Positions 446-46,943 of a stretch of 64,000 nucleotides of DNA are shown piece by piece. Source of the stretch: a virus (taxonomy: Duplodnaviria; Caudoviricetes). The notes under the pieces were generated by a model that was not told where the DNA came from, did not search any database, and saw only the letters and a program-made list of their open reading frames with translations. Position 1 is the stretch's first letter; every line of letters starts with the position of its first letter. Location: the IMG/VR virus record IMGVR_UViG_3300032030_000073, positions 4,086-68,085 of that record. One strand, written 5' to 3'. The translations under genes were made by a program, and so were the position numbers.

Positions 446-475
446 ATCTTAAATCCGCTTTACCACCGCTTTACC
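446..475 (-). promoter_or_regulatory. Late-promoter-like motif, copy 1 (before portal)
   Basis: Minus strand GGTAAAG-CGGT-GGTAAAG-CGGATT-TAAGAT, then 7 nt to ATG. Confidence 0.6.
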
Positions 476-2839: not shown

Positions 2840-2944
2840 TATTTTTCGGCGGAATCCGTGTGCAGACACCCACTTCGCCCATCGCCGCCCCGCCATTCCC
2901 CCATACCCAAGCCCCTAAACCCACCTTGCCACAGAAGCGCGAAA

Positions 2945-3022
2945 AACGCCCCTAGAATCGCTCCGCGCTGCTCGGACGTATCATTTGCCGTCCAGACCGC
3001 TCCGCGCGCTCCTAGGGGCGTT
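2945..3022. repeat. 11-bp inverted repeat enclosing a 10-bp direct repeat
   Basis: AACGCCCCTAG (2945-2955) / CTAGGGGCGTT (3012-3022); CGCTCCGCGC twice inside. Confidence 0.6.
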
Positions 3023-3485
3023 CTTGCCGCGTTCTAGCGAATCTACCGCCCGTTCCGCCATTCACATACACACGGGGGCCCCCACGAGGCTACTCGGCCC
3101 CGGCCCCGCGCCGACACCCACCTGCGCCCCCATACCCGGTACGGCGGGGGCCGATGACGGCGCGGCGGCGCATCCATCGATCTGCGCTCGCGGCTCCGTG
3201 CGTCGGTGTTACGCTGCTCTGCGCTCTGCGATTGCGAGGGATTGCGCTCTGCGCCTGCCCTCGATTGCGCCGCTCTGCGCGTGGTGGAGGGTATCTAACC
3301 CTCCGCAGATTGGCAGAAATCCCAAACAAACGCCCATGCCAGACCGCACAGCCTTGCCAACTCGCAACAATCTCGCAAAAATCCCGCAGCCAACCCGCCG
3401 AGGACGGCACGGACGATCGATTGTCCAACGCGTGGCATGGTCCATCCTGGACGTCAACCAGTCAAATCCGGCAGCCGATCTATCG

Positions 3486-3567
3486 CATTTGTGACAGATT
3501 TCAGAATTGTGTCACAAATGAAGGCGGGCGGATGCCGTTTGTGACAAAATCCGCGAATGTGTCACAA
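3486..3567. repeat. Two tandem dyad sites TTGTGACA-N13-TGTCACAA, 50 bp apart
   Basis: CATTTGTGACA 3486-3496 / TGTCACAAATG 3510-3520; TTGTGACA 3539-3546 / TGTCACAA 3560-3567; both spacers 13 nt. Confidence 0.85.
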
Positions 3568-3641
3568 CACGGGAGCGCGCGCAAACGCCACAAACGCGAG
3601 ACCCGGCCTTATCGCGGAAAAACGGCCTCAAATATGCCGTT

Positions 3642-3972
3642 GGGCAGGGCGGGCAGACTTCGGACATGGCGACCCTGCCCAGAAATGCGACAAAAATAAT
3701 ACGGGAATGTAAGAAAATGTGAGATATTGCACAAAAACAGCTCTGGGCAGGGTGGACATACCCCGCTATCACGCGCGTACGTGCGCGTATAAAGCCGCCG
3801 TGACGCATTATAGGCCATCGGCCAACTATAGATTTTCTCACGCGTACGCGTATATAGTAGGTCTGCCCAGTCTGTCCAATGGCTATATCGGTATAGTATT
3901 GGGTGATTTTTGGCCGATAATTGCAATTATATCGGACAGGGCAGGTCTGCCCACGGTCTGCCCACCCTGTCC
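3642..3972. repeat. Iteron-like CTGCCC/GGGCAG cluster with palindromes (candidate ori or pac)
   Basis: 8 copies at 3642, 3651, 3675, 3745, 3863, 3939, 3947 and 3958, plus CTGTCC variants; palindromes ACGCGTACGCGT and ATAATTGCAATTAT (3917-3930). Confidence 0.6.
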
Positions 3973-4355
3973 AGATTTTGGGCGTTTGGCGATTTTGTGT
4001 GCGAAGAGCGGCAATTTGATTTTTGGCAGCGAGAGCGACGGTTTTGGCCGCTCGCGCTGGTATGAGGCGGAGGGCGGAGCGCATCCCCTAATATACCCCT
4101 AATATGGTACGCGCGTGCGCGTGGGCGTAGCGCGTGCGCGACATAGGGATGAAGATAGTAAGAGGAAGGGTTGGGAATTGATCGGTGGTGGATTTGACGC
4201 CCTGGGCGCCGCCCCGCGCTGGATGACGGGGGAGCGGGGGCCGGGATCGGGCGCAGAGCGTGCGCGGCCCGGGCCGTTATAATGCGCTTGTTTATATTTG
4301 TATATTGGCGAAATTGGGAGAAATAAGAAAAGTGAAATTTTTTGCGGTTGCCCCC

Positions 4356-4384
4356 TTGCGCGGTGGCCGTGGATTTGATATACT
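4356..4384 (+). promoter_or_regulatory. Sigma70-type early promoter
   Basis: TTGCGC-17 nt-TATACT with extended TG and an AT-rich UP-like tract at 4321-4345. Confidence 0.8.
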
Positions 4385-4407
4385 GTTGGCGTTCCCCCGT
4401 GATGGGG

Positions 4408-4527
4408 CTTGCGAGCTAGAAGGCGCAAGGCATGAAGCGAACACAACCGATTTTAGCCGGTTGCACGTCGGGCGAAAGCCCCCTTCTAGCGTGCAACCGG
4501 CTAATCTGCTAAATGGAGCTAGAAGGC
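4408..4527 (+). ncRNA. Structured leader / antisense-RNA switch, copy 1
   Basis: Hairpin CTTGCG-AGCTAGAAGG-CGCAAG; 15-bp perfect stem 4453-4467/4490-4504 with inner GGGC-GAAA-GCCC hairpin and bulge CCTTCTAGC; GAGCTAGAAGGC repeated at the RBS. Confidence 0.68.
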
Positions 4528-4528
4528 C

Positions 4529-9448: not shown

Positions 9449-9598
9449 ATGAAAAAACTGTACTACGTCCATACTCACCTCGGCAGGTTCGAGACGTGGG
9501 CCATCAGCGCGACGAAGGCGATTGCCAATATCCGCTTCCGCCTGTTCGGAGGCCGTTGCGGCGTGTCCACGGCCTATTGGAAGGCGGTGGAAGCATGA
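9449..9598 (+). CDS. Hypothetical protein (49 aa)
   Basis: MKKLYYVHTHLGRFETWAISATKAIANIRFRL..., RBS AAAGGG, ATGA coupling. Confidence 0.55.
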   Translation: MKKLYYVHTHLGRFETWAISATKAIANIRFRLFGGRCGVSTAYWKAVEA

Positions 9599-15504: not shown

Positions 15505-15897
15505 ATGGCAAACTACCTCAAGAGGTCTTTCGTCTGCGACATGCTGCGCGTCTCGCGCTGGCAGTCGTACCAGATCGTCGGCTCGTCCTACGGGCCGCGC
15601 ATCAGCTCCGACGACGTTCTCGCCGTGATGAACCGCGCGCGTCGTGGCGGCCTCGCCCCGCTCGTCTATCCGGGACTCCCGCACGACCTCCTCACGCCCG
15701 AGGAGCTGTCGGCGGAACTGGTGGAATCCGACATCTCCGTGCGCGAGTTGCTCAACTGGACGCGCCGCACGAAGCCCGGCGCGATCCCGCCCCATTTCCA
15801 CATTACGCGGCGCACGATCCGATTCCCCCGCGCCGAGTTCATGGCGTGGCTAGACGCCCGTTCACGCCTAAAGTCGCTGAAAGTGAGGGTCGCGTAG
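15505..15897 (+). CDS. Excisionase-like (MerR/HTH_17-type) winged-helix protein, probably two tandem domains
   Basis: DLLTPEELSAEL...LLNWTRR...HFHITRRTIRFPRAEFMAWL; the N-half shows a similar pattern. Confidence 0.7.
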   Translation: MANYLKRSFVCDMLRVSRWQSYQIVGSSYGPRISSDDVLAVMNRARRGGLAPLVYPGLPHDLLTPEELSAELVESDISVRELLNWTRRTKPGAIPPHFHITRRTIRFPRAEFMAWLDARSRLKSLKVRVA

Positions 15898-16308
15898 ATG
15901 ACCGAAGCCGTCGAGAAGCGCGCGATCGCGTTCATTCGCACAATCGGCAACCGCTGCACGTCGTGCCTGCGACGCAACGAGGAGAACTGCCGTCGGTGCA
16001 TCTCGTCGTGGGCGAACGAGATACTGCATGACTACGAGAACGAGTCAGTGCCACAGCCCGACTACTCGCTTTCCGCGCGGATGATGATGATCGCAGACGC
16101 TCTCGACAAGGCCGGGCGTCCGCTCCTCTCGTCCGAGATCGACCTGAAGAAACTTTGCACGAAGCAGCTCAAGCGGTGGACGCTCCAGAAGATGATACGC
16201 CTCGGATTCGTGCGCCGCACGAAGACGTGCAGCACGGCGCATTTGTACCGCTATTCGCTCAACCGCAACAAGCCATTTCCAGCATCTGCTGGACAACCCC
16301 AAAAGTAA
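15898..16308 (+). CDS. Cys-cluster plus winged-helix-like protein
   Basis: CTSC...CRRC, then SSEIDL...WTLQKMIRLGFVRR...YRYSL. Confidence 0.6.
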   Translation: MTEAVEKRAIAFIRTIGNRCTSCLRRNEENCRRCISSWANEILHDYENESVPQPDYSLSARMMMIADALDKAGRPLLSSEIDLKKLCTKQLKRWTLQKMIRLGFVRRTKTCSTAHLYRYSLNRNKPFPASAGQPQK

Positions 16309-32435: not shown

Positions 32436-32953
32436 ACAAATCCTATAACATGAACATCGACACCGGCGAGAAGACATGGCTCACCCCGCCGCACATCATC
32501 GAAGCCCTCGGCCCGTTCGACCTCGACCCGTGCTGTCCGCCGACGATGCCGTGGCGCACTGCGACGCGCATGGTGCATTGGCCGGAGGACGGCCTGAATG
32601 TGGACTGGACAGGCAAGCGCGTTTGGTGCAATCCGCCGTACGGGCGCGACGCCGTGCCGTTCCTCCGCAAGATGGCGGAAAACAAGACGGGGGGTGGGAT
32701 TTTGCTTATATTTGCGCGGACTGACACCTCCGCGTGGCAGGACTATATATTCCCGTACGCAAGCGGCGTTCTGTTCCTTCGCGGGAGGCTGCGCTTCCAC
32801 AGGCCCGACGGAACGCAAGGAGAGACGGCTACGGCGCCCTCTGCGCTCGTCGCGTACTTGGATCGGGACTTCATGCGTCTGCGCGAGAGCGGGCTTAGAG
32901 GCGCGTTTTTGCGCGTCTCGAGTTATGCTTTAGGCGGCAGTATCGCGAAGTAA
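32432..32953 (+). CDS. Phage DNA N6-adenine methyltransferase (phage Dam-like)
   Basis: WLTPP, FDLDPC, VWCNPPYG, ARTDT.W, LFLRGRLRF. Confidence 0.9.
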   Translation: MNKSYNMNIDTGEKTWLTPPHIIEALGPFDLDPCCPPTMPWRTATRMVHWPEDGLNVDWTGKRVWCNPPYGRDAVPFLRKMAENKTGGGILLIFARTDTSAWQDYIFPYASGVLFLRGRLRFHRPDGTQGETATAPSALVAYLDRDFMRLRESGLRGAFLRVSSYALGGSIAK

Positions 32954-34131
32954 GCCTCGCCCTCCGCGCGCAGCTCCACGCCGTTGTAGTTCCGCGCGCG
33001 CACGTCGTCCGTGTTGCCGACTATCGCCGTCAGCGCGTTCGCGTCGTGGTGAACGGCCTCGAACATCGTGATGAACGTATGACGCCCCGCGTTCTTCGTC
33101 AGCTTCGCCTTCGCCGCCGACGCCGCGTCAACGAGGTGCCGGCGGAACTGCTTGTTCCTCGTGGTGGCTCCGTCCATGAAGTCGAACGCGCGCATCCACG
33201 CGACGGCCTGCTCGGGGATGGTGAACGCCCTCGGCTTGATCCCCTTGCTGACGCCCTTCGGGATTCCAACGCGGATCGTGCGTTCGTCTATGCTTATCCT
33301 GATTGCGTGCTCGCCGAGTGGAGCGCGGTCGATTTCGCTCTGGCGCATCCCGCAGAAGAACGACAGGATGGCGCATGCGAGGTCCGCGCGTCCGCACGGA
33401 GAGTCGCGCCTGTTCCAAAGCTCGCCGAACAGCTTCTTCACGTCCTCCGCCTTCATGTACTCCGGCTGCCGGTACGGAATGACAATCTTCTTCATCCCGT
33501 CCAGCGGGTTCTCGCGAAGGTACTTCTGCTCGACGTTCGCGCACCACGAGACGAACGCTTTGATGTTGCCGAGGTGGTTGTTGTACGTCACCCACGAGCC
33601 GATGTCGCCCTGCCTGTAGAAGCCGTCCACAAGGTACTTCTTGACTTCCGGCGCGTTGATGTCGGACACGGGCCTCGCCTCTCCGAACGCGCTCACGAAC
33701 GCTCCAACGCGCAGGCGCACGTCCTTCTTGTACGGCTCGCTCTTGTCCTGCACGGCCTTCGCGTAGCCGGCATACGCCTCGCCAATCGTGACGGACGGCG
33801 TCTCCTCCCTTTCAGGCTCGCCCGCGAGCACGATCTTCGCGCACTCCACGAGCGTCATGCTACGCCCGCTCTGCGCGATCATGTCAATAGCCTGCTTGGC
33901 GTCCATCGCCTGGTATCGCGTCAGCACGGCCCCGGCCTCGCCGCTCTGGTCAAGCGTCTTGTAGAACTCGGCTATCTTCTGCTTCAGCCTCTTCTCGTTC
34001 GTCGCGGACTTGCGCACCGGCTTGCCCGTGAAAGGGTCTGTTCCGAAATACGCCTCGTAGATGGCGTACCCACCCTTCTGGACCCTCGCCTTGACCGTGG
34101 CAAGAGCCTCGTTTTTCGGCAAAAAACTCAT
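32923..34131 (-). CDS. int: Tyrosine integrase
   Basis: FFCGMRQSE (R), K in the beta hairpin, KNAGRHTF (His-to-Asn variant of HxxR), RNY (Tyr); N-terminal arm and core-binding regions; adjacent attP. Confidence 0.9.
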   Translation of the reverse strand: MSFLPKNEALATVKARVQKGGYAIYEAYFGTDPFTGKPVRKSATNEKRLKQKIAEFYKTLDQSGEAGAVLTRYQAMDAKQAIDMIAQSGRSMTLVECAKIVLAGEPEREETPSVTIGEAYAGYAKAVQDKSEPYKKDVRLRVGAFVSAFGEARPVSDINAPEVKKYLVDGFYRQGDIGSWVTYNNHLGNIKAFVSWCANVEQKYLRENPLDGMKKIVIPYRQPEYMKAEDVKKLFGELWNRRDSPCGRADLACAILSFFCGMRQSEIDRAPLGEHAIRISIDERTIRVGIPKGVSKGIKPRAFTIPEQAVAWMRAFDFMDGATTRNKQFRRHLVDAASAAKAKLTKNAGRHTFITMFEAVHHDANALTAIVGNTDDVRARNYNGVELRAEGEAYFAILPPKA

Positions 34132-34229: not shown

Positions 34230-34258
34230 AGTGTATCATGGTTTTTTCGCGTTGTCAA
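34230..34258 (-). promoter_or_regulatory. Sigma70-type promoter of int
   Basis: Minus strand TTGACA-17 nt-TACACT. Confidence 0.8.
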
Positions 34259-34286
34259 GCGGAGGTTTTTATTTTGCGAGTGTGGC

Positions 34287-34533: not shown

Positions 34534-37500
34534 TCACTTCCGGCGCGAACGGCGAATCTTGTCCAGCAGGATCGACTTCTGCCGTTCGATCTCGTTTGTC
34601 AGCGATGCCGTTGGCGTGCCGCCCTTCTTCTCGATGTCCTTCGCCTTGCGCTCAAGCCGGTTGACGGCCTTGATGCGCGCGTCGATGTCGCCGCGCACGG
34701 AATCGGCCATGAGCGGGCTTTCAGACTTCATGCCGTCAAGCAGCTCCTTCCTTTCAGACTGCGTGAGTTCCGCGTCCTTGCTGATGGCGTCGTATGCCCT
34801 CTTTTCTTCCAAGAAGCGGTTGACGGCGTTGTCGTAGGGCTTTCGGTCGTATGTCGAGCCTCCAGCGCCGAGAATCGACAGCGGAACCGTGACAAGCGAT
34901 TTGCCGACGCCGTTCTGCACGATCTGGTCCTTCACGTCATCGAACGTTAGCGGGACGAGCATTTCCCAAACCATATTGCCGACGCCGTACTCTTCGCCCA
35001 CGTAGTCCTTGCCTTCCCAGAGAGCGACAATGGTAGACGCCGACGGGGACAGCTTGCCTTGCAGATAGCGCCCGATCGCACCCATGGTCGTCGGACCGTT
35101 GAAGTCTCCAAACTTCATCACGCGTCCCGTGCTAGAGCGCTTGGACTTCGTTGCCAGCTGATGCACAAGCCTGTTGAACGTCGATTCGCCGCCCGTAAGG
35201 TCTATCGTAGTGTTGCCGATCTTCGGAGAGGCTATCATCATCATCTTCTCGAACCAGTCGGCCTGCGAGAAGTCGTACTTGTCGTCGTCGTCCGAAAACA
35301 GCCATTTGAGGAGCGAGCCGATGGCAAGCATCGCGACGGTCGATCTCAGATGCTCGCGAAGACCGATCTTCGCCGCCGTCTTGCGCTCGTCGTTCGACAC
35401 CTTATCGAACGAACCGTCGGCGTTCTTTATCCCCTTCGCGACGAGCGGATGCCAAATGTCGTATCCGACGGCGGACTGGACGCGGGAAATGGCGAGCTGC
35501 GGCGCCCAGAAGATGTCGTTCACCCACGCCTTCTGCAACGCCTGGCGGCGCTCCTTCGAGAGCGCGGCGGAGCCGTTCCAGATGTTGATCATGTCGGCTA
35601 TCATCTTCTTCTGCCACGGCGTCGCGCCACCTGGAATGCCGTTTACGATGGACGTGTAGAGGTCTGCGGACATGGCGTTGAGGTACGTCAGGTAGTGACG
35701 TTCGCTCTTCAGCATGAACTCGCCGAAGAGCGGGATGTCCGTGATGGCGTACTCCTTGCCGAAAATCTTCACTTTGTTGCGCTCCATGCCGTGGAACATC
35801 TCGACGTCGCGGTCGCTCTGCGCGTCCACTTCGCGGAGGTGAAGTCCGAACTTCTTGACGGCCTCCTGTACGGTCGGGTCGGACAGAATCTCCGTGTTCA
35901 CGTCAAGTAGGCTCGCCTCGGAGCGCGCCGCCGTCCACGCCTTGCCGAACGACCGCGCCGCCTTGACGGGATGTCCGAGCGTCATGCGCGCGGCCTGCCG
36001 AAGGACGGCGGAGAAGTCCATCGTGGCACGAAGCGCGCGCTGGGCGGTCGTGACGAAGCGCAGGAAGTTGACGCCCTTGCGGACGAACGTCGGCACGGTG
36101 GCGTTCTCCGCCTCAAGGCGAAGTTCCGCCAGCTTCTGCCGTCCGCGCTTCATCTGCTCGCCAAGCTCGTCGTACCGCTTCTGCTGGTCTTTCGTCATAG
36201 GCGGCTGCGGCTTCTTCTGCGGACGAATGTCGCCCGTCGCGATGCGTTCCGCGAGACGCGCCAGGGCCTTTTCGCGGCTTGCCATCTTCCGGGCGTTCAG
36301 CGCCTCGATCTCCTCCGGCGTCATGCCGAACGCGTACTTAGCGTTCTTCAGTTCGCGGATGGATTCGCGCACCTGCCTGATGCGGTCGCGCAGCGTCTCT
36401 ATCGTCTCCGAGGTGACGCCCGGACGCTGCGGACGCTTCGAGAAGTCGCCGGACTGCGCACGGGCGAAGTCCTCCATCGCGCGTTCGAGCTCTTTTGCGA
36501 GGAGTTTTTCCGTGAGCGCGATGCGCTGCGCGTCGGTCATCTCGCGCGTCGTTCCGAAAAGTTCGTCGTACTGCTTCTGCAACTCGTCCTTCTCCGCGCG
36601 GAGTTCGCGGACTCGGATGTCGTCAACCACCTTCCGCTTCGGGACTGGTATGCGCTCGCCGGTCTCAATGGCGCGTTTCAGATCAGCGATCCTGTTTTCA
36701 AGGTTCCGTTTTATCGTGTCGAGCGTGCTTTTCAGCCGCCGCTCGTCACGTCCGGCGTCGGGGACTTCCGCCTTTCGGTCGCGCACCCTCTTCGCCCACT
36801 CGCGCTCGTCCTGCGTGGGCTCGTCGCGGATGGGGCCGGTCGCGGGCGGCATCGTGTTCGTCTCGTCCATCCAGTCGATCTGACGCTTCGACCTCGAAAT
36901 GTTGCGGAGGCTGTTCATCAGCCGCTGCGCGTCATAGCGGGACTGCTTGTAGTTGTGCCCGAAGCCCGTCAGCGCGTCACGCACCTGGTTCGCGTCCACG
37001 CCGTCCATGAACGGCGAGATGTCCCGGACAATCGCGTCTATCACCTCTTCCTCGGTGATCTCCGGGTTGAGGAAGCAGTGGTACTCGCCGATCTGGCGGA
37101 GCCACTTGCCCCACGACGGGTACTGCTGGTCGGAAAGCCCGATGAGCGTGCCGCCCGTCTCGGCCGCGCCGACCTCGATCTGCGTGAGCGCGTCCTGGTA
37201 GTTCTGCGCGACCTTGCGCGCCACGTCGCCCACCTTGCGCTCCGTGGCCTTGCGCACCTTCAAGCCGTTCTTCGTCTGGTCGATGACCTTCTTGGAGAGC
37301 GGGATAAGCCGTTCCGTCGCAAGGCGCAGACCTTCCTCGTCAAGCCCCTCGAAGAGCTTTGCGAGGTCGCGTATCCGCGCGTTCATTTCTGGCGTAATCT
37401 TGTCAATGCCGCCAAGGGTCTGCGCGATCCTGCCCGCGATTCCCGCATACGAATAGTCGTGCGCGGCGATGAGCGCGCGGTTCGAGCGCAGCGCGCGGCC

Positions 37501-40500
37501 CTGCTCGGACGCGCCCATCATCGCCGCCTTGCCGGCCTCCGCCATCTGCGCCTTGGCCTGCGCCAGCTTCGCCGACACCTGCCTCAGCTCGTCCCGCAGC
37601 TCCGGCGTCTTGTTCATGTCGTCCTCCGGGATCGCCGCAAGTTCGGCGCGGCGTCTCTCCAGGTCGTTCACGGCGGCCTGCCGCTGGCGGAACAGCACAT
37701 TCAGCGCGACGTTCTCGTAGTCGCGCGTCGGGCGCGGGAACTTCGCCACGGCGCGGGAGAGCTTCGCCATGTACGTGGGGTTGGAGAGCAACGTCTCCAC
37801 CTGCCTCCACATGTCCGCGTCCGTCTTCCTGACGTGCGCGGGTGGCTCCATGCCCGCCGCCTTCAGCGCGGTGGCGATCTCGTCGTTCGTCATGCCGTAC
37901 ACCTCGCGCATGATCTTCTCGGTGGGCGTCTTGTCCTCGCTTGCGGCATACTCCGCCTCGGCGGGCGTAAGCTCCGGCGTGTCGAAGCTGACAAGAGATT
38001 CGCCGAATGGGCCGCGAGGGTCTTCAATGTCGCGTTCGATAGCTTTGTACGCATCGTTTATCTTCTGCGCGACGCGATTAAGCCGTTCAAGGTCTTCTCC
38101 CTTAAAGTTGCCCGACTCTACAAGGTTCTTCAACGCCTCCGCGAACGGCCCGGCCTCTCCTGGGCCGATCGCATACGGATCGAAGTGCATGGAAATGCTG
38201 GCTTCGCCGGATTCGATGGAGTCGAGGATTTCCAGCAGGTCGCCGTTTGTGTACCAGTCAATTTCCTCACGGTCCTCACCAATTCCGTTCCGTTTAAGTT
38301 CTTTCAGCTGGTCGCGCAGTTCCTTCGCGTCCTCGCGATAATACGTCTCTCGTTTTTTGTAATAGTCCACATTGAGCGGATCTTCTTCGGCTAATCTTTT
38401 TTGCTCCCTCGCCTTTGCGTTATCCTCATTGATGCGCCGCTTGAGGTCACGCGCCTCAGATTCCGACGGCGTGTCGTCGGCACCCGCTTTGATATTCCGC
38501 TTCGCAGTCTTGCGCAGGGCGGCGATGTCGTTCAGCATTTGTTCATCATGCGTGGAAATCCACCACAGAGAATGGTCAAGGCGTTCTGGAACCGACGAAT
38601 AATCGGCGCTTAGTTCCGGCGTGTCGAATTGCAGGACGCCGTCGGTCCACTTGTGGTCCACGCGGATGTGCTCGTCCGAGAACGCGACGTAGTTCCACCC
38701 CGCCTTGTCGCCGTCCTTAAGAGTTTTGCCATACGAGTCGACCGGGTACTTCACACCGTCGATGCCGGCTCGCGCAAGGAACTCGGAAGCGGCTTTGGGT
38801 CTATTTGACGTTCTCGGGAAGAACTGGCATGTCAATTTGTATAGGTCTTCGCCTGTCTTGACATTGATGTTTATGTAGCCACCGTTCAACGTAACCGGCT
38901 GATAATAATGTCCGGTTCCATCGTCCGCCCACAGAAGAATCTTACCGTCTTCGTCCGTCCTTCCATATTCATCTTCACGTATTACCCCCTCTTCTTTGGC
39001 TTTGTCTATGATACGATTCACAAGTTCTTGCTCTACCGGCTCGTACCACTTCAAGAGGTGGCTCTCGTCGCCCGGCGCCCGGTTCGTGAAGAACGTTTGC
39101 TCGTAGAGGTGATTGTTTGTACCATACCCTTTAGGGATTATCGCATCATGCCAAGTCGACTTCTCAAGAATGTCTTTAACAACTTCCAAGCCTTCGGCAA
39201 ACTTGTCGTGAGCAAGGCTTTTATGCTTATCAATGGCTTCGGAGACTTCTTCGATAGCCTTTTGTCTTGATGTCTGATTCCACCCGTGCTTTCTCAACTT
39301 CTCACGTGCAGAATCAATCGCCCATTTGGGAAATCCATTTTCGGGCATATCATAACCAGGGTCTTGGGCCAATCCAGATTTGCGAAGACTATCATCATGC
39401 GCATACCCCTCCGCGACGCCGCGCTCTGTGCTCCCGTAGAGCCCCCAGCCGTAGACCTGGCTGCCCTCGCCCGTGCCGATGTACTTAACGCTCGGCCCGT
39501 CGTCCACGCCGCCCTGGCGCGAGCGGTTCGCGTAGTCCGCCGCCGTGCCGGTGTAGATGCCGGGCGTGTCGAAGTCCACGCCGCCCTGCAACGCCCGGAC
39601 GCGCTCCGCGAACTGCGCCTTGAGTTCGGCGCGCTCCGCGTCCGTCTTCGCCGCCCTGTACGCCGCGTCGATGCGCTGGAGGGCGGGGTCGCTGCGCATG
39701 GCCTCCCTTGTCTGCTCCGCCACTCCGCGCCGATATGCGTTGCGCTCCTCTCCCGTGAGCGTGTCCTTCATGCCCGTGGCGGAAATGTCGCCCATCGGCA
39801 CGGTGCGCGTCTCGACCTTCTCCGGCGCGTAGCGGTTCGCGCCCGGCGTGCGCACCTGCACGTCCGCCGTGCCGTCTGCGTTCGCCTTCAGGAACGTGAC
39901 GCGCTGGCCGTCCTTCGCGCCCTTCAGGAACACGCGGTCGCCGCGCTTGAACGCGGGCTTTTGGGGTTTTTCGCCCGTAAAAACGGGCGACACTGGACGC
40001 GTCGCCGTAGGTTTTGCGGCTGGCGCGGCGTTTTCCGCCGACTCCCCACCCTGTGGCGCGCTTGCGGGCGCTTCGTCCCACGAATCGTCGTACTCGCCGA
40101 TCTCGTCAAAAGCCTGATTGGTGGCGCGCCTGACGGCCTCCTCGTATGCCGCGACCTCGCGCTGACGTTGACGGGCAATCTCGCTTCCGTTCGCGTAGTA
40201 TTTCCCAGTCTTGGGGTTTATCACCGAGTGGAACGGCGCTTTCTTCTTGAGTTCGTCGGCGATCTTCTTTGCCTCGGCCATCTTGGCTTCCCAGTCGGCC
40301 TTTGAAGTCGCCTTCGTGAATGTCTTTGGGAACTTCACGTCCGGCAGTTCGACTTCGTACTCCCTGCCGTTCTGGACGATTCGTACAGATTCGCCGTCTC
40401 GCGTCGTTTTCACCACCTGTGGCGCGTCCGCGCTCTTCGGTGGCGTAGTCGTGCCATCCGCGCGCGGCGCGCTTGCAAGGGCGGCTTTGGCGGGTTTCCG

Positions 40501-43500
40501 CGCCGCCTGCTTGCGCTGCCATTCCGCGAAACGCCCGTCGGTGTCCTTCATCTTGTACTTTTCAAGCCACGCAAGGTATTCTGCGGGGCGTTCCGCAGCC
40601 TTCTCCTTCGCGGCGGGCGCGGTCGCTTCACTCTCCGCGATAGGCGAGAAAAGGTCCTGCTGGCCGGTCTGGCCCAGGTCCATCTCCGGCTGCACGTTCA
40701 CCGCGCCGCTGCCCTTCAAGGGCGCTTCCTGGCGCTTCTTGATCTCCGCCTTTTCGCGGCGCTTCTTCTCCTCGGCGGTTATCTGCTCTGCCGTGACACT
40801 TTCGAGCGAGAGTTGCGGCGCGATGCCGAGGTCCGCGTCCATCTGCGCCTTGTCCGCGTCGTCCAGGCGGATCGCGTTCTCCCAGTAGTTCGCCCTCTCC
40901 ACCGCCTTGTCGCGCGCGGCGGCGAGCTGCGCCTTGTCCTTCGGATCGGATATGCCAAGCTCCTTCGCATAGTCCTTGTTGAGGTCGAGACGTCCGCCCT
41001 TGCGCATGGCCGTGCGCAGGTTCTCCGCGATGCGCTTGTACTCGTTCGCCTTCTTCGCGCGGTAGTCGGCGCGCTTCTCCTCCTGCTGGAGCAGAGCAAC
41101 ATCCTCCTCGCTCGTGAAGAGGTCGAGCTGCGTACCGCTGTCGGCCTTCGGCGCGTTCTTGCGGTTCTTCGCCTCCTCTGCGAGCGAACGCGCGAGGATC
41201 GCTAGCTTCTTCCCGCGAACGCCGTCAAGCGCGCGGCGCACGAGGATGCGCTGGAGCGCGGCCTGTTTCGGCGCGGCGTCCGCGATGATTGCGGCCTGCT
41301 CGGCGGAGATCAGTCCGTCTCCGCCTGTTCCTTCCCAGTCGATTGCGCCTCGCGTATCGTCTGTCGCATTTTGGACAATGCCGAACGCCATGCGGCCTTT
41401 CTGCCTGTTGAGGATGCCGGAGGATTTTGCGTCCTCCTCGCTGAATCCCGATTCCTCGAAGAATCTAACATAGTCTTTCACCGTTCCTTTCTCGTCGAGA
41501 ATGTTCGCAACCGCGTCGTAGAGACGCATGTCCTCCGGCGTGTAGCCGTCGGCCTCGCGGAATATGCGCGCGTCGATGTCCTTCCAGCCGGAGCGTTTCG
41601 CCGCGTCCAGCCTGTGGCGGCCCGTCACGATTTCCATTGTGCCGTCCTTGCGCTCGTAGATCGCGATGGGGTTCTCGGCGTTCTCGTAGTATTCGCCAAG
41701 CTCCTGCCCCTTCACGACGCCCGTCTTCGGGTCGGCGTTCTCCTTGAACTGGGTGTCGGGAATCTTGATTCCGTCAACCGGCACGCGACGGCGCTCGCCC
41801 TTGCGGTGCATGACGTTCCAGAAGCTGCTCTCGCTCATGGGCTGCCGCCCCGCATCCCCGCCGATGGTATCGGCGGGCGCAGGACGCTCGGCGGTGTTCA
41901 AATTTTGACCGCCGTTGTCAGATTTTGACGGCTCTACCACTCCCGCATCTGGCGCTTGCGCTCCCGGCTCCGCTCCCGCTTCGGGTTGCGGCGCTTCTTG
42001 CCCCCGCTCTTCGCCCTGTTCGGGCTGCGGCTGTGCTTCATCGGTTCCATTCCTTGCTTCATCCGTTACTCCTTCTTCGTATCTCACTCCGCTGTCACCC
42101 GGCAGCGTTTCAAGCTCGTTCTCGCCCTGCGCGCCCTGTTTCTCCGCCTCGGCGAGCATCACCTCAAGGTCGGACTGGTCTATCGGCACGTTCTCGCCCG
42201 CGTCGCGGCGGCGCTGGTTCAGCTCGTGCTTCCGCTTCTCGTACCACGTCGGCTGGTGGAGCCGTCCCTGCGCGTAACGCGCCATGGCCTCGCGCGCGTA
42301 CTCGTCCATGGACATCGCGGCGGCGACCTGCATCCTCGCCGTGTCCTCGTCCATGCCGGCCGCAACGAATCTCTGCACGGCCCTCTCCTGCTCCGCGAGA
42401 ACGAACTTGCTGAAACCTTCCGCCTGCGCGTTCTGGATGAACTCAACCGTGTTCGCGCCGCGCCCCGTGGCGCTCTCCACGCCCTCGTGGCCCGTCGCCT
42501 CGTGCGCAAGCACGCGCTCCATTTCAGCAGGAGACGGCACGTTGTCGAGGATCACCACGATATGCCCGTCTGGCGTGTGGAAGCCGCCCGCGCCGGGCTG
42601 CTTGAGGCTTCCGTCTGCCTTGAAGAGCTGGTCGGCGCGCGTGATGCCGTAGATGTTTCCGCCGTCGTTGATTGCCTGCGCAACCTGCCAGCGCAGCGCG
42701 GCCTCTGACGGGATGGAAACGACGTTTCGCCCAGCATACTGGCGCTGTACGAGCCCCGTGAGATACTGCGCCTTCTGCGCGTTGTCCGCGTCCATCGACT
42801 GGTTGCGCACGACTTCCTCGTCTGCCTTTTTCTGCGCCTCCTCGAACGAGTACGCGGGAACGGCGTCAAGTCCCCGGAAGTCGTTCATCACGTAGAACGT
42901 GCCGTCGCCCTGGTCCACGATCGTCACGCCGTGCGCGGCGTCGGTCATCGCGTTCATCGGCGCCTGCTTGCCGTCTGGCGTGAAGCGCATCATCTGCTGG
43001 AACACCGGCTTGCCATCCTCTCCGGTCTGTATCGTGAACCTCTCTGGCGCGATACCGCGCTGTTCAAGCGACTGGCGCATCTTCAACCCGTCGCGCGCCG
43101 TCAACTCGTCAACAGCGGCCCTCATCGAATAACCGAGGTTCTTCACTTCTTCCTTCAGCTTGTCCGGGTCGGCGGAATACTGTTGCCACATCTCAGTCAG
43201 TTTTTGCTGCTGCTCCGGCGTGAGCGTGGAGATCGTCTCGTCTGAAATGCCGGAGCGCTTCAGCGCCATGCGGATGTCGCGGCGGGCGTCCGCGGACGAT
43301 ATGTGCTGCGCGACACCCTCGCTCGTGCTCTTCACCGCGCCGATCGCAAGCTGGGCTACGAGCCCGTAGAAGATGTCCCACTGCGTCTGCCAGTTGAGCT
43401 GGTTGTCCTTGAAGTCCTGCCATTCCTGCGCAAGCCCCTTGTATTCAGAAGACTTCCCGTCAAGGCCAATCACCTTCTCGAACGCCTGCACGTTCTCTTC

Positions 43501-45450
43501 CGCAAGTTCCCCGAGCGGGGAGTTGATCTGCGTCATGGCGGTGAAGTCCTGGTACGCCCTGTTGATCGAGCGCAAAGCCTGTCCGGTTTCGGACGCCATG
43601 AACTTGTTGAACCTCTTCGTGCCGAACTCCCTCACCGCGCTCGGCGTCGCCTTGCCGAAAGCCCACCCCGTCGCCTTGCCCGCGCCGCGCAGAAGCCCCA
43701 TCGTGACCGATTCAAGCCCCACCTCCACGGCGGTGTCGAATATCGCGCCGCCGATTGCCTTGTACGCGGCTTCCTCCTCGTCGTCGGGGGCCGCGACCAT
43801 CTTGAACTCGCCGTTGTCGTCAAAACCGTACTCGGGCGTGACGTTCTCCTGGTAGCGGGACATGGCCTCCGTCGCGACAACAGGCACGGCGGAGCCGAGC
43901 ATGGTGGCCGCGCGCACGGCCTTTGCGCCCCAGTTGAGCGCCTGCGCGCCCTTGAACATCGCACCGCCGGGGAGCGCGAACTCCAGCGCGTAGCCGCCCG
44001 ACTCGATGCCGCCCTTCACGATCTTGTCGAGGATGCTCTGCTCCGTCGCGGACAGCTTTCCGCCCGCGTCGAGCTTCGCGATTGCGTCAAGGCGCAGCTC
44101 CTCTCCCGCGTCGTGCTGGATGCGGCCCATGAACTCCGCGTCGTTCTCGTCTGGACGCAGCGATTCAAGCGGGTTCCACGGCTCCAGTCCCGCCTTGCGC
44201 GCGGCGTCGCGGTATTTCTCCGCTTCCGTCTTGCCATCGTAGCCGTCCAGCTTGCCTTCGTAGATGTTGGAGAGGTGTCGCGTGCGCTCGCGCTGCTCGT
44301 TCGGGGCCGAGCGCCCCGCATACGGCATGAGCCTGTCGTACACGGCCTTCGCCGTGCCGAGCCAATCGTCGGTGTAGCGGCGCCTGTCGCCAGTCTCCGC
44401 GAGCGCGCCGAGCCGGACCTGCTCGAACGGCGAGCGCTCCACCTTGCCCTCGCCCTTGCCCATCATGCGGTCGAAGTCCTCGTCGCGGACGTGCAGCTTG
44501 CCCGCCACCATCGCGCCCTCGGACGAGACGCCTTCCGTCTCCTTGAACACGGGCTTGCCGTCGTCACCAACGCCGGTGAACTCCATCAGGCGCGCCGCCT
44601 GCCCGGCCTCGCCCGTGAACGGCCCGTCTCCCTCCTTGTGGTAGACGGCTATCGCGTCGCCGGGCTTGATGGCGTTGCCGTCGGCGTCCTCCAGCACGTC
44701 TCCAGTGAGGAACAGCTCGGGCGCGACCTGCGTGGTCTTGTTTTCCAGCTCCCGCTTGCCGTAGACCGGGCCTGCGATGGACTGCCCGAGCAGGACATTC
44801 TCGTACTTCTTGGTCGCCATCTGCGCGGCCTTGTCGCCAGACTCCTTGACTCGCGCCTCGCGTTTTCTGCGCGCGCGTTCGCCGCGCACGCCTGGGTCGT
44901 GGCGGATTTCGTCGCCCATGTCGTCCCAATGCGACTGGATGTATTCGTTCCAGCCTTTCTGGTAGGCTTTCTGGTGCTCGTCGTGGACGGCACGCGCCAT
45001 CTTGCGCGCCGAATCCTCGTCGTCGGCCTTGCCCCAATGCTCGCCCGTATCGGCGTAGTGCCTGACGGCATCTTCCTGTGACAGCTCCTTGCCGTCAACG
45101 ACCATGGGGATTACCGCAATCTTGCCGTCGCGGTCTTGCACGAGCATTGACTTGGTGGTTGAGTACCCGCTGACCTTGCCGTTCGCGCCGCGCCGGATGA
45201 GCGGCTTGCGCCCTTCCGTGCGCAGATTGCCGCCCCATTGGTTCGTCTGGCCATCAGGCATGGTGGCTGCGCCGCCGTCGCCAGACTCCCATGTGGGGAC
45301 GGGTTGTGCGTCCGCAGAAGCTGACGCCACGGAACCAGTTTCACCAGACGGCCCACCCTCGTCGTCCTCTATCTCGAAACCGCCAAACGCGGAAGAAGAG
45401 GACGGCTTCTTCTCGTCGTCCTCTATCTCGAAACCTCCAAAATCTGCCAT
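34534..45450 (-). CDS. Giant (3638 aa) polyvalent internal-virion/ejection protein: metallopeptidase-like HExxGH, ParB-like and ART-like domains
   Basis: LAHEATGHEG (about 42490), IVTGRHRLDAA (about 41610), IGTGEGSQVYGWGLY...GIDGVKY...NYVAF (38640-39560); last gene of the late operon after two other ejection-type genes. Confidence 0.85.
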   Translation of the reverse strand: MADFGGFEIEDDEKKPSSSSAFGGFEIEDDEGGPSGETGSVASASADAQPVPTWESGDGGAATMPDGQTNQWGGNLRTEGRKPLIRRGANGKVSGYSTTKSMLVQDRDGKIAVIPMVVDGKELSQEDAVRHYADTGEHWGKADDEDSARKMARAVHDEHQKAYQKGWNEYIQSHWDDMGDEIRHDPGVRGERARRKREARVKESGDKAAQMATKKYENVLLGQSIAGPVYGKRELENKTTQVAPELFLTGDVLEDADGNAIKPGDAIAVYHKEGDGPFTGEAGQAARLMEFTGVGDDGKPVFKETEGVSSEGAMVAGKLHVRDEDFDRMMGKGEGKVERSPFEQVRLGALAETGDRRRYTDDWLGTAKAVYDRLMPYAGRSAPNEQRERTRHLSNIYEGKLDGYDGKTEAEKYRDAARKAGLEPWNPLESLRPDENDAEFMGRIQHDAGEELRLDAIAKLDAGGKLSATEQSILDKIVKGGIESGGYALEFALPGGAMFKGAQALNWGAKAVRAATMLGSAVPVVATEAMSRYQENVTPEYGFDDNGEFKMVAAPDDEEEAAYKAIGGAIFDTAVEVGLESVTMGLLRGAGKATGWAFGKATPSAVREFGTKRFNKFMASETGQALRSINRAYQDFTAMTQINSPLGELAEENVQAFEKVIGLDGKSSEYKGLAQEWQDFKDNQLNWQTQWDIFYGLVAQLAIGAVKSTSEGVAQHISSADARRDIRMALKRSGISDETISTLTPEQQQKLTEMWQQYSADPDKLKEEVKNLGYSMRAAVDELTARDGLKMRQSLEQRGIAPERFTIQTGEDGKPVFQQMMRFTPDGKQAPMNAMTDAAHGVTIVDQGDGTFYVMNDFRGLDAVPAYSFEEAQKKADEEVVRNQSMDADNAQKAQYLTGLVQRQYAGRNVVSIPSEAALRWQVAQAINDGGNIYGITRADQLFKADGSLKQPGAGGFHTPDGHIVVILDNVPSPAEMERVLAHEATGHEGVESATGRGANTVEFIQNAQAEGFSKFVLAEQERAVQRFVAAGMDEDTARMQVAAAMSMDEYAREAMARYAQGRLHQPTWYEKRKHELNQRRRDAGENVPIDQSDLEVMLAEAEKQGAQGENELETLPGDSGVRYEEGVTDEARNGTDEAQPQPEQGEERGQEAPQPEAGAEPGAQAPDAGVVEPSKSDNGGQNLNTAERPAPADTIGGDAGRQPMSESSFWNVMHRKGERRRVPVDGIKIPDTQFKENADPKTGVVKGQELGEYYENAENPIAIYERKDGTMEIVTGRHRLDAAKRSGWKDIDARIFREADGYTPEDMRLYDAVANILDEKGTVKDYVRFFEESGFSEEDAKSSGILNRQKGRMAFGIVQNATDDTRGAIDWEGTGGDGLISAEQAAIIADAAPKQAALQRILVRRALDGVRGKKLAILARSLAEEAKNRKNAPKADSGTQLDLFTSEEDVALLQQEEKRADYRAKKANEYKRIAENLRTAMRKGGRLDLNKDYAKELGISDPKDKAQLAAARDKAVERANYWENAIRLDDADKAQMDADLGIAPQLSLESVTAEQITAEEKKRREKAEIKKRQEAPLKGSGAVNVQPEMDLGQTGQQDLFSPIAESEATAPAAKEKAAERPAEYLAWLEKYKMKDTDGRFAEWQRKQAARKPAKAALASAPRADGTTTPPKSADAPQVVKTTRDGESVRIVQNGREYEVELPDVKFPKTFTKATSKADWEAKMAEAKKIADELKKKAPFHSVINPKTGKYYANGSEIARQRQREVAAYEEAVRRATNQAFDEIGEYDDSWDEAPASAPQGGESAENAAPAAKPTATRPVSPVFTGEKPQKPAFKRGDRVFLKGAKDGQRVTFLKANADGTADVQVRTPGANRYAPEKVETRTVPMGDISATGMKDTLTGEERNAYRRGVAEQTREAMRSDPALQRIDAAYRAAKTDAERAELKAQFAERVRALQGGVDFDTPGIYTGTAADYANRSRQGGVDDGPSVKYIGTGEGSQVYGWGLYGSTERGVAEGYAHDDSLRKSGLAQDPGYDMPENGFPKWAIDSAREKLRKHGWNQTSRQKAIEEVSEAIDKHKSLAHDKFAEGLEVVKDILEKSTWHDAIIPKGYGTNNHLYEQTFFTNRAPGDESHLLKWYEPVEQELVNRIIDKAKEEGVIREDEYGRTDEDGKILLWADDGTGHYYQPVTLNGGYININVKTGEDLYKLTCQFFPRTSNRPKAASEFLARAGIDGVKYPVDSYGKTLKDGDKAGWNYVAFSDEHIRVDHKWTDGVLQFDTPELSADYSSVPERLDHSLWWISTHDEQMLNDIAALRKTAKRNIKAGADDTPSESEARDLKRRINEDNAKAREQKRLAEEDPLNVDYYKKRETYYREDAKELRDQLKELKRNGIGEDREEIDWYTNGDLLEILDSIESGEASISMHFDPYAIGPGEAGPFAEALKNLVESGNFKGEDLERLNRVAQKINDAYKAIERDIEDPRGPFGESLVSFDTPELTPAEAEYAASEDKTPTEKIMREVYGMTNDEIATALKAAGMEPPAHVRKTDADMWRQVETLLSNPTYMAKLSRAVAKFPRPTRDYENVALNVLFRQRQAAVNDLERRRAELAAIPEDDMNKTPELRDELRQVSAKLAQAKAQMAEAGKAAMMGASEQGRALRSNRALIAAHDYSYAGIAGRIAQTLGGIDKITPEMNARIRDLAKLFEGLDEEGLRLATERLIPLSKKVIDQTKNGLKVRKATERKVGDVARKVAQNYQDALTQIEVGAAETGGTLIGLSDQQYPSWGKWLRQIGEYHCFLNPEITEEEVIDAIVRDISPFMDGVDANQVRDALTGFGHNYKQSRYDAQRLMNSLRNISRSKRQIDWMDETNTMPPATGPIRDEPTQDEREWAKRVRDRKAEVPDAGRDERRLKSTLDTIKRNLENRIADLKRAIETGERIPVPKRKVVDDIRVRELRAEKDELQKQYDELFGTTREMTDAQRIALTEKLLAKELERAMEDFARAQSGDFSKRPQRPGVTSETIETLRDRIRQVRESIRELKNAKYAFGMTPEEIEALNARKMASREKALARLAERIATGDIRPQKKPQPPMTKDQQKRYDELGEQMKRGRQKLAELRLEAENATVPTFVRKGVNFLRFVTTAQRALRATMDFSAVLRQAARMTLGHPVKAARSFGKAWTAARSEASLLDVNTEILSDPTVQEAVKKFGLHLREVDAQSDRDVEMFHGMERNKVKIFGKEYAITDIPLFGEFMLKSERHYLTYLNAMSADLYTSIVNGIPGGATPWQKKMIADMINIWNGSAALSKERRQALQKAWVNDIFWAPQLAISRVQSAVGYDIWHPLVAKGIKNADGSFDKVSNDERKTAAKIGLREHLRSTVAMLAIGSLLKWLFSDDDDKYDFSQADWFEKMMMIASPKIGNTTIDLTGGESTFNRLVHQLATKSKRSSTGRVMKFGDFNGPTTMGAIGRYLQGKLSPSASTIVALWEGKDYVGEEYGVGNMVWEMLVPLTFDDVKDQIVQNGVGKSLVTVPLSILGAGGSTYDRKPYDNAVNRFLEEKRAYDAISKDAELTQSERKELLDGMKSESPLMADSVRGDIDARIKAVNRLERKAKDIEKKGGTPTASLTNEIERQKSILLDKIRRSRRK

Positions 45451-45464
45451 CTTGAATCCTCCGT

Positions 45465-46943
45465 TTAGACGCGCTGCCAGGTGAGCTTGCCGGGGTTCTT
45501 CTTGCTAGGGAGCAGTTTCATCCTGATTCCGTTGATCTCCTGCACGTCGCCTTCCTTGAACTGCCTTCCGTCGCCGCCACCATTATCGCCCGTCTTTACC
45601 TCTGCTTTACCGGACGGCGACGGGGGTTCCGGGATTTTTTCACCGCGTTGCTTCAAGGACTCTTCAATTCGCTTGGCGTGCTCCCTCATGGCGTTGCGAT
45701 CGGTTTCGTCGTTCAGCAGATCGTTCGCGAACCGAAGCGCCTCGACATATTCGTGGGTCGTCGGCGGCCTTCCGCCTATCGTGCCCCTGCTCTTCATTTC
45801 CGCCATCTTGGTCTTCAGCTCGTTCGCCTGCTTCGCGCGCTCGTTGCGGCCCTTCTCGTTCTCGGCCTGCTGCGACTCGACGGCCTGGTTGTGCCGCACG
45901 GCCTCGGCGAGCTTCTTCTCGTCGACGTCGTACCCCTGCCGTTTCAGCTGTGCCGTGAGGTCGGCAACCGAAAGCCGCGTCTCGTTCTGCGCAGCCGCCC
46001 TCTCACTCTTCGCGTTCTCCTGTATCTGCGCGACGCGCTCCTTGTCGCTCACGCCTCGCGTCACGCTCTCTATCGTCTGGCCCTCCGGCACGAAAACCAC
46101 CTCGCCGGTCTTGTCGTTCTCGTAGCGCGTCCCGCGCCGCCCGTCGCCGTGCGACCCGCTCGACAGCACCTTCCACCTGCCCTTGTTGTCGGGCGAGCGC
46201 GTGCCGTAGCCCTCGCGCGACACGCTCCCGTCCGGGGCGATGCTCGTGTTAGAGAAGCCGCCGCGCCCGTCGGAGCTGAACACGGCGCCACCGCGCCTCT
46301 CGGGCGTCCCCATCCACGAGCCAGGCACGCGGATCCCGCCAGTAGGCGACCTCTGGCCGACCGCCGCCTCGCCCCACCCCTCCGGCAGCTCGGGAACGTA
46401 CTTGTTGGCCATGTCCATCGTCCAATGGTTCTTGCGGATGATGTTCTCCCTCAGCGACATCATCTCGTCCCTGTTGAGTATTCCGGGGTTCTCGCGCGAC
46501 ATGTTGTAGATGTCGGCGGCGGACACCTCCTTCTCCTCGTTGCTCATCTGCCCGGTCTGCGGGTCCCTGCTCGCGATTCCGAGGACCATGTTGAAGTTGG
46601 GCGTGACGCCCGCGCTGTACATCGCGCGCGTGTTCATGTCGAACCCCAGCGCGTCGTTGACGCCGGGAACCATCTGCTGCGGCATCCTGTTGTGGTTCAT
46701 CAAGGAGTATTTGTACGCGGCAAGCAGGTTCACGGCGCCGTTCCTCGCGCGCCGCGCCCTCTCCATCGCGTCTTTCTGCATGATCTGCCCGTAGTTGTCG
46801 AACACCGCGCGGTTGCCGTTGACGATTCCGGCCATCATCTCGGCGCGTCTCTGCATCGCCGCGTTCTCGCGCTCCGCGTTCTGCTGCCGAAGAGCCGCGT
46901 CCCAGCCGTTTTCGCCAAAACCATTTTCTTCCATCTCGTCCAT
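45465..46943 (-). CDS. Probable ejection protein 2
   Basis: 492 aa, helical and low-complexity, lies between the Ala/Gly-rich gene and the giant gene; C-terminal ...GKLTWQRV. Confidence 0.7.
   Translation of the reverse strand: MDEMEENGFGENGWDAALRQQNAERENAAMQRRAEMMAGIVNGNRAVFDNYGQIMQKDAMERARRARNGAVNLLAAYKYSLMNHNRMPQQMVPGVNDALGFDMNTRAMYSAGVTPNFNMVLGIASRDPQTGQMSNEEKEVSAADIYNMSRENPGILNRDEMMSLRENIIRKNHWTMDMANKYVPELPEGWGEAAVGQRSPTGGIRVPGSWMGTPERRGGAVFSSDGRGGFSNTSIAPDGSVSREGYGTRSPDNKGRWKVLSSGSHGDGRRGTRYENDKTGEVVFVPEGQTIESVTRGVSDKERVAQIQENAKSERAAAQNETRLSVADLTAQLKRQGYDVDEKKLAEAVRHNQAVESQQAENEKGRNERAKQANELKTKMAEMKSRGTIGGRPPTTHEYVEALRFANDLLNDETDRNAMREHAKRIEESLKQRGEKIPEPPSPSGKAEVKTGDNGGGDGRQFKEGDVQEINGIRMKLLPSKKNPGKLTWQRV
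45582..45611 (-). promoter_or_regulatory. Late-promoter-like motif, copy 3 (inside the upstream CDS, before the giant gene)
   Basis: Minus strand GGTAAAG-CAGA-GGTAAAG-ACGGGC-GATAAT. Confidence 0.55.

Follow-up and report, generated by a model that had tools for sequence, protein, structure and literature searches.

Gene layout and the repeat elements

The window analysed here (64,000 nt) comprises bases 4086–68085 of a complete 68,085-bp IMG/VR virus record, the ends of which share a 127-bp repeat. A codon-usage gene call divided the genes into two blocks, one per strand. The early block lies on the plus strand at ∼4529–32953. The late block of ∼37 kb lies on the minus strand, in the order terS, TerL, portal, circular junction, virion genes, giant gene and integrase. 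The putative small terminase gene (terS, 2116–2799, ATG at 2799–2797) was named by position only and had no family match. The large terminase gene (TerL, 494–2119) is located between the two core elements described below and showed at most 30% identity to annotated TerL genes by tblastn. The portal gene encodes 759 amino acids in the full genome; its 5′ part occupies 1–438 with the ATG at 438–436, and it runs off the window. Past the circular junction from portal, virion genes run from 63994 down to a giant gene of 3,638 codons (34534–45450), and a tyrosine integrase gene (32923–34122) is the last of the late block. TerL and portal were merely 21–30% identical to those of cultured podoviruses. 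An N4-like phage with the giant gene as virion RNA polymerase was considered and rejected, as TerL is at most 30% identical to that of non-N4 podoviruses and the giant protein belongs to no polymerase family.

The phage is temperate, having an integrase gene, a repressor region of the HTH_3 type and an attP that includes the 3′ end of a tRNA. Five TTGCGAG units surround the tRNA-like attP core (34193, 34274, 34441, 34452 and 34513), including one tandem pair with an 11-bp period, and the matching attP position in the relative G002 carries TTGTGAA tandem pairs; the TTGCGAG units are probably arm-type sites of the integrase. A second TTGCGAG tandem pair, at 3361–3378 in a non-coding region upstream of terS, is unexplained. 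The attP region also contains GTCAAGCG, the half-site variant of the relative G001, once at 34255–34262, which may be chance. Between the late and early blocks, 1.7 kb (2840–4528) holds no convincing gene. This stretch contains four TGTGACA/TGTCACA units (∼3490–3570) and repeated CTGCCCAG/GGTCTGCCCA units (∼3640–3980), and might serve as an origin or as a group of operators.

The first-pass annotation had described a direct repeat, GGTAAAG-N4-GGTAAAG, at 458–475, 2822–2839 and 45594–45611. All three copies were found at these positions on the minus (late) strand, and a search of the window for CTTTACC-N4-CTTTACC on the plus strand gave exactly these three matches, compared with 0.00 expected from 100 dinucleotide shuffles. 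The described spacer C[GA]G[AT] fits all three sites, and the hexamers TAAGAT, TATAGT and GATAAT do follow the second repeat after exactly 6 nt. The site before portal (446–475) has half-sites at 469–475 and 458–464 separated by CGGT, then CGGATT and TAAGAT (446–451), and it takes up the 55 bp that separate the portal ATG from the TerL stop codon. The site before terS (2810–2839), which would be the first promoter of the late strand, has half-sites at 2833–2839 and 2822–2828 separated by CGGA, then TGAAGT and TATAGT (2810–2815). In the third site (45582–45611) the repeats at 45594–45611 are followed by ACGGGC and GATAAT (45582–45587). This site lies inside the 3′ end of a 492-codon ORF, within the codons for S-G-K-A-E-V-K-T-G-D-N, 131 nt before the ATG of the giant gene at 45450. 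Near the portal site, a degenerate third unit, GAAAAG, was seen at 480–485. A perfect 12-bp A/T palindrome, TTTTCGCGAAAA, at 481–492 directly follows the TerL stop codon upstream of the portal repeats and is kept in the relative G005.

The 7-bp unit and the exact 11-bp period hold within this phage, but comparison with relatives showed that the half-site is really the 8-mer GTAAAG[C/T]G and that the period is 10 or 11 bp. All four GTAAAGYG copies fall in the portal and terS sites, and none was found in the immunity or early region. A further copy had been predicted before the scaffold and capsid genes. It is absent: the complete 68,085-bp genome has only the three sites when up to one mismatch is allowed. 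Looser motif scans merely returned overlaps of the known sites and one match that is not a promoter.

A sigma-70 consensus scan recovered none of the three sites and no TTGACA-like hexamer 16–18 nt upstream, although the host is uncultured and its rules may differ. The sites were missed because the −35 hexamer is absent, its position being occupied by the distal half-site. Canonical hexamers were detected in the early promoters of the phage. At the 15 sites tabulated for this phage and its relatives, the downstream hexamer has A at position 2 and T at position 6 in 15 of 15 cases, with T or G at position 1, T at 3 and A at 5 preferred and the other letters variable, giving a consensus of TAtnAT. 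This is the variation expected of a −10 element read by the sigma-70 family, to judge from the letters. If the hexamer is set at −12 to −7, the half-sites lie at about −35/−34 to −28 and −24 to −17. The distal unit would then be placed where sigma region 4 binds, and the proximal unit within the spacer. An A4 or T4 tract occurs within 25 nt upstream of 9 of the 15 sites but in only 8% of genome windows; these tracts resemble an UP element.

The distance from hexamer to ATG is 7 nt at portal and 10 nt at terS, a closeness that leaves no space for ribosome binding and that the first-pass annotation had not remarked on. No Shine-Dalgarno sequence precedes either gene, whereas one of the AGGA/GGAG type is located 6–10 nt upstream of most others in the phage. 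A GAGGT in the repeats was rejected in this role since it is too distant from the ATG and is missing from the GTCAAG variant of the half-site. The portal ATG at 438–436 is the earliest possible start of its frame, and the N-terminal coding sequence is kept in relatives from this ATG onward. With no ribosome-binding site and a fixed short gap to the start codon, the simplest reading is that the terS and portal mRNAs are leaderless. The giant gene has its own strong Shine-Dalgarno sequence before the ATG at 45450. In metatranscriptome X24, contigs of a 90–95% relative end at 2793 (terS ATG at 2799) and at 387 (portal ATG at 438) and DNA contigs run across both places, but as contigs only, from one study, these ends are not counted as evidence.

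Conservation of the elements in related phages

Relatives were collected by TerL searches of IMG/VR and GTDB genomes and by p136 searches (p136 being an early protein described below) within one bacterial family. Altogether 17 sites, including the third site of this phage, were found in 10 related contigs, the TerL of which is 34–96% identical to that of this phage. The first-pass annotation had let its claim stand or fall with conservation of the motif upstream of late genes in relatives, and the motif was indeed found before terS and portal wherever these regions were covered. The layout of the portal site is kept in G005, G001, G002, G003, G004, L033, L047 and G556, and that of the terS site in G001, G002, G003, L033, L047 and G556. 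Common to them are two [G/A]T[A/C]AAG[C/T]G half-sites, 10 or 11 bp apart from start to start, with both periods present in the genome L047. The distance from the proximal 6-mer to the hexamer is a constant 6 nt in all sites, and the start codon follows the hexamer after 6–10 nt, being ATG or, in G556, GTG. The G556 hexamers, TATCAT and GATAAT, are outside the 15 tabulated sites and also fit the −10 pattern.

Three variants of the half-site were distinguished. GTAAAG occurs in this phage, G002, G005, L033 and L047, GTCAAG in G001, and ATAAAG in G003, G004 and G556. The two copies within a phage always agree, though they differ between phages. That both half-sites change together from phage to phage points to a phage-specific reader and not to the host sigma factor.

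Exactly two sites each were found in G001 and G002, which are complete, and in the G556 contig of 28.7 kb, indicating that the third site, before the giant gene, is an addition private to this phage. No copy of the motif precedes the capsid genes. With two or three promoters for ∼37 kb of late genes and none before the capsid genes, the "late regulon" of the first-pass annotation would have to rest on long operons.

In two distant relatives, G236:C9 (L062) and G477:C16 (L189), the portal gene has the same hexamer-N7-start arrangement, but the repeats are replaced by TTGAC(G/C)-16-TACATT. The canonical −35 of G236 and G477 indicates that the portal position is that of a promoter for host polymerase. 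Theirs may be the ancestral arrangement, or one that has replaced the tandem repeats. A CGTCA..TGACG palindrome overlaps the canonical −35 of G236.

A motif scan of IMG/VR gave more than 114 matches. Those in contigs above 55% G+C belong to this clade, apart from three unrelated matches without a start codon, and the remainder, in contigs of lower GC, are probably chance. Only in this clade does the motif with its hexamer occur twice per contig.

Contigs of the clade were binned into two ruminant MAGs, named Kiritimatiellae and Lentisphaerae, and both MAGs belong to one GTDB family. The early protein p136 was detected in 9 of the 221 genomes of that family, and a sample of 401 genomes of the class gave matches in that family only.

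Candidate readers of the half-sites

Two adjacent early ORFs with winged-helix character, here named p130 (15505–15897) and p136 (15898–16308), both on the plus strand, had been suggested as candidate activators in the first-pass annotation. Their candidacy is strengthened by conservation, since they are the sole adjacent early pair kept throughout the clade, and both model as winged-helix proteins; their proposed PhoB/OmpR type did not hold up for either. No receiver or OmpR-type (Trans_reg_C) domain came up when p130, p136 and a further 30 early proteins were scanned against Pfam and PHROG. The early regions of the three complete genomes differ almost wholly, and p130-p136 is the only adjacent early pair common to all of them. 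The pair is also kept in G003, G236, G477, G556, G572 and two contigs of G006. In every relative the two genes abut or overlap, which suggests that the proteins are produced together. Among the few other early genes kept in G001 and G002 is one encoding a 49-residue protein (9449–9598) without a family match.

p130 is a winged-helix protein of the HTH_17 kind (Xis/Cox/BldC/MerR-N type). It scored 26.9 bits against HTH_17 (PF12728), just below the cut-off of 27.0, and several close homologues have a precomputed PF12728 match. In fold comparisons the C-terminal half of the p130 model (pLDDT 85) matched the excisionases RdfS, GIsul2 Xis and Pukovnik Xis as well as BldC, P2 Cox and MerR N-domains, and also the DNA-binding domains of small terminases, at Z 4.6–6.9. 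Proteins of this fold bind direct repeats head-to-tail. One relative of p130 was labelled AlpA by its source. In the model the N-terminal half is beta-alpha-alpha-beta-alpha; an interpretation of p130 as two tandem HTH_17 domains was discarded, as profile comparison of the two halves showed no similarity. As p130 is the sole excisionase-like protein found in the phage, it may be the directionality factor.

p136 has four invariant Cys residues (C20, C23, C31 and C34) in a helical N-terminal domain, and its modelled C-terminal winged helix is MarR-like. It matched no Pfam or PHROG family, and its relatives form ∼118 clusters at 50% identity, none of them named. Searches for p136 in the ESM Atlas, of Pfam with distant p136 relatives and of GenBank phages with p130 and p136 gave no lead. 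Only two contigs in IMG/VR carry p136.

The predicted recognition helix of p136 changes with the half-site. (T/S)KQLK occurs with GTAAAG (three phages), SRALK with GTCAAG (one phage) and SNQLK with ATAAAG (two phages). The more alike the promoters, the closer p136 is to that of this phage, with identities of 82% for the genome that contains L047, 61% for G002 and 51% for G001. The pattern of p130 is another one: in phages sharing the GTAAAG class it is merely 38–41% identical to the copy of this phage, and its ranking matches that of the integrase, with G001 above G002. The class-consistent change in p130 is QSY versus TSY. This change comes down to G001, because the other TSY phage, G236, has a canonical −35 at portal; before terS, G236 has at most one proximal GTCAAG, which may be chance. 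In contig G006:C232 (L064), p136 is 82% identical to that of the window while p130 is 38% identical to it and 72% identical to that of G002, a mismatch that indicates that recombination has separated the two regulator genes.

By these comparisons p136 tracks promoter specificity and p130 tracks integrase divergence. The three specificity classes correspond to about three independent lineages, so that the association of helix and half-site is a lead rather than a result, and both the p136 substitutions and the Q/T change of p130 could reflect chance or shared descent. On balance we give p136 slightly better than an even chance of being the reader of the repeats. p130 is a distinctly less probable reader, and that both proteins or another protein read them is somewhat less probable again.

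A model for late transcription and its alternatives

From the motif, its layout, its conservation and its co-variation we infer a polymerase, transcription starts, activation rather than repression and a binding protein, as follows. The elements are probably activator-dependent promoters of the host RNA polymerase that have no −35 box and from which terS and portal are transcribed as leaderless mRNAs. A host polymerase of the sigma-70 type would read the three late promoters through the usable −10 (TAtnAT), and the two direct 8-bp half-sites at about −35 to −17 would stand in place of the −35 box. An early phage protein, most likely p136, with p130 as alternative or partner, would bind the half-sites head-to-tail in the same orientation on successive helix turns and recruit or position the polymerase. 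Transcription would start 6–8 nt after the hexamer, which is on the start codon of terS and portal or 1–3 nt before it, while the third promoter would give a leader of ∼125 nt ahead of the giant gene. It counts against this model that a protein covering −24 to −17 might equally obstruct the polymerase, and that winged-helix proteins of the MarR-like sort as a rule bind, as symmetric dimers, to inverted and not to direct repeats.

Late promoters that lack a −35 and depend on an activator are of a textbook kind, known from Mu, P2 and lambda CII. The first-pass annotation had compared the elements with promoters of the PhoB/OmpR type. In the pho box of E. coli PhoB, an OmpR-family class II activator, two 7-bp direct repeats with an 11-bp period replace the −35 and sigma-70 reads the −10. 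The elements are like it in having repeats in the −35 place and a period of 11 in this phage, with winged-helix candidates for which head-to-tail binding is proposed. The comparison thus stands for repeat length and period; it fails for the gap to the −10, which is 6 nt here and ∼10 bp in the pho box, and for the readers, which are not of the OmpR type. The proximal unit here also falls within the spacer (−24 to −17), the period can be either 10 or 11, the candidates lack a receiver or OmpR-type domain, and the proposed reader is encoded by the phage.

Lambda CII activates pRE, pI and pAQ at TTGC-N6-TTGC, a repeat with a 10-bp period straddling the −35, and is a phage activator working with the host polymerase. 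The elements share with these promoters the direct repeats at the −35 position, a weak or absent −35 and the proposed combination of phage-coded activator and host polymerase. They differ from them in sequence, in the unit (8 bp versus 4 bp), in the targets (late structural genes versus lysogeny genes) and in the predicted leaderless mRNAs, and no CII-like protein was found in the phage. The late promoters activated by Mu C/Mor and by P2 Ogr/P4 Delta likewise have a good −10 and no −35 and use host polymerase with a small phage activator that an earlier operon supplies, and Ogr and Delta are four-Cys zinc proteins, as p136 appears to be. However, their sites are dyad-symmetric at about −30 to −55, whereas a direct repeat at −35 to −17 is found here, and the searches run with p136 and p130 showed no sequence or fold relation to Mu C/Mor or Ogr/Delta. 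In design the elements come closest to the pho box and the lambda CII promoters, in which direct repeats likewise take the −35 position, and to Mu and P2 late promoters, with their good −10, missing −35 and phage activator. They depart from these designs in the recognition sequence, which is new, in the reach of the repeats to 6 nt from the −10, in the period of 10 or 11 bp, in the predicted leaderless targets and in the candidate readers.

P2 Cox is similar in another way. The cox-boxes, TTAAAG/CNCA, recur every 10–11 bp, and Cox activates the P4 promoter PLL (PMC3936717). The core TAAAG and the 10–11-bp spacing are common to both, with different flanking letters here. Cox, also from a temperate phage, is a small winged-helix protein resembling Xis that serves in excision as well as at promoters, and the C-terminal domain of p130 aligns to it (4lhf, Z 4.6). 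In contrast, Cox forms filaments, needs at least six boxes and wraps ∼70 bp, while there are two units here and possibly a third, degenerate one. At PLL the sites for Cox are outside the core promoter, and it is p136 and not the Cox-like p130 that tracks specificity in the present phages.

The alternative that survives best, though we consider it unlikely, is that the repeats are operators. The −10-only promoters would then fire alone or with a host factor, and a phage protein would repress them in the lysogen or in early infection. The phage is temperate, with its integrase and HTH_3-type repressor region, the sites overlap the core promoter, and the C repressor of P2 binds direct repeats in its operator (PMC3936717), a likeness that we count for this explanation. 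But with neither a −35 nor an extended −10, only weak activity is to be expected of the core promoters, and the immunity and early region, where a prophage repressor must act, has no half-site. The genes for p130 and p136, moreover, are part of the lytic early operon and do not adjoin that for the repressor.

Less probable still is binding of the repeats by a response regulator of the host, of the OmpR/PhoB type, with the half-site variants reflecting different hosts. The classical pho box has just this design, a 7-bp direct repeat at an 11-bp period where the −35 would be, and the individual relatives may have different hosts. However, the three variants occur in phages whose carrier genomes belong to one bacterial family, the p136 helix changes in step with the half-site, and late timing would have no clock internal to the phage.

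We think it very improbable that an antiterminator of the Q or AlpA kind loads at the repeats, inside the promoter, and makes the polymerase resistant to terminators instead of recruiting it. The AlpA binding element lies between the −35 and −10 of PalpB, at about −25 to −20 (PMC9371919), which is the place of the proximal half-site here, and the AlpA label of one p130 relative agrees with this. On the other side, there is no −35 that would make the promoter constitutive, and the start codon follows immediately, so that the pause site and terminator would need to be intragenic. No terminator-like site was found after the elements on the late strand, and p130 and p136 were unlike Q or Pseudomonas AlpA in fold searches.

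Equally improbable is a promoter for a sigma factor or RNA polymerase of the phage, or a pac site flanking terS-terL: a phage-specific motif of high conservation, with its two core sites on either side of the terminase genes, would fit, as would the likeness of the p130 domain to the small-terminase DNA-binding domains, but no polymerase or sigma family was detected in the genes searched, the giant gene included, a direct repeat is unexpected for a sigma factor, the fixed 6 nt to TAnnnT and the fixed distance to the start codon would be purposeless in a pac site, and the third site is far from the terminase genes.

If the elements are activator-dependent promoters, as we favour, a further step may be proposed tentatively. 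p136 would be the founder of a new family of late activators, composed of a four-Cys helical domain and a winged helix, which binds tandem half-sites at −35 to −17 and stands in for sigma region 4. Specificity would depend on two residues of the helix (K,Q with G.A; R,A with G.C; N,Q with A.A), and phages of Kiritimatiellae would thus have naturally orthogonal pairs of activator and promoter.

To our knowledge, there has been essentially no study of how phages of PVC bacteria (the Kiritimatiellae and their relatives, which are common in the rumen) regulate their genes. The model gives a precise and testable account of a late switch in such phages. It comprises a 30-bp promoter with three natural specificities, two short proteins as candidate readers, one of them of an unnamed family, and packaging genes as predicted leaderless cases. 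If the model is true, the activator-promoter pairs could serve as compact orthogonal expression parts, and the element could aid the annotation of late operons in uncultured phages. Close relatives of the phage were present in runs from the gut of sheep, goat and bovine animals, over 13 studies in all.
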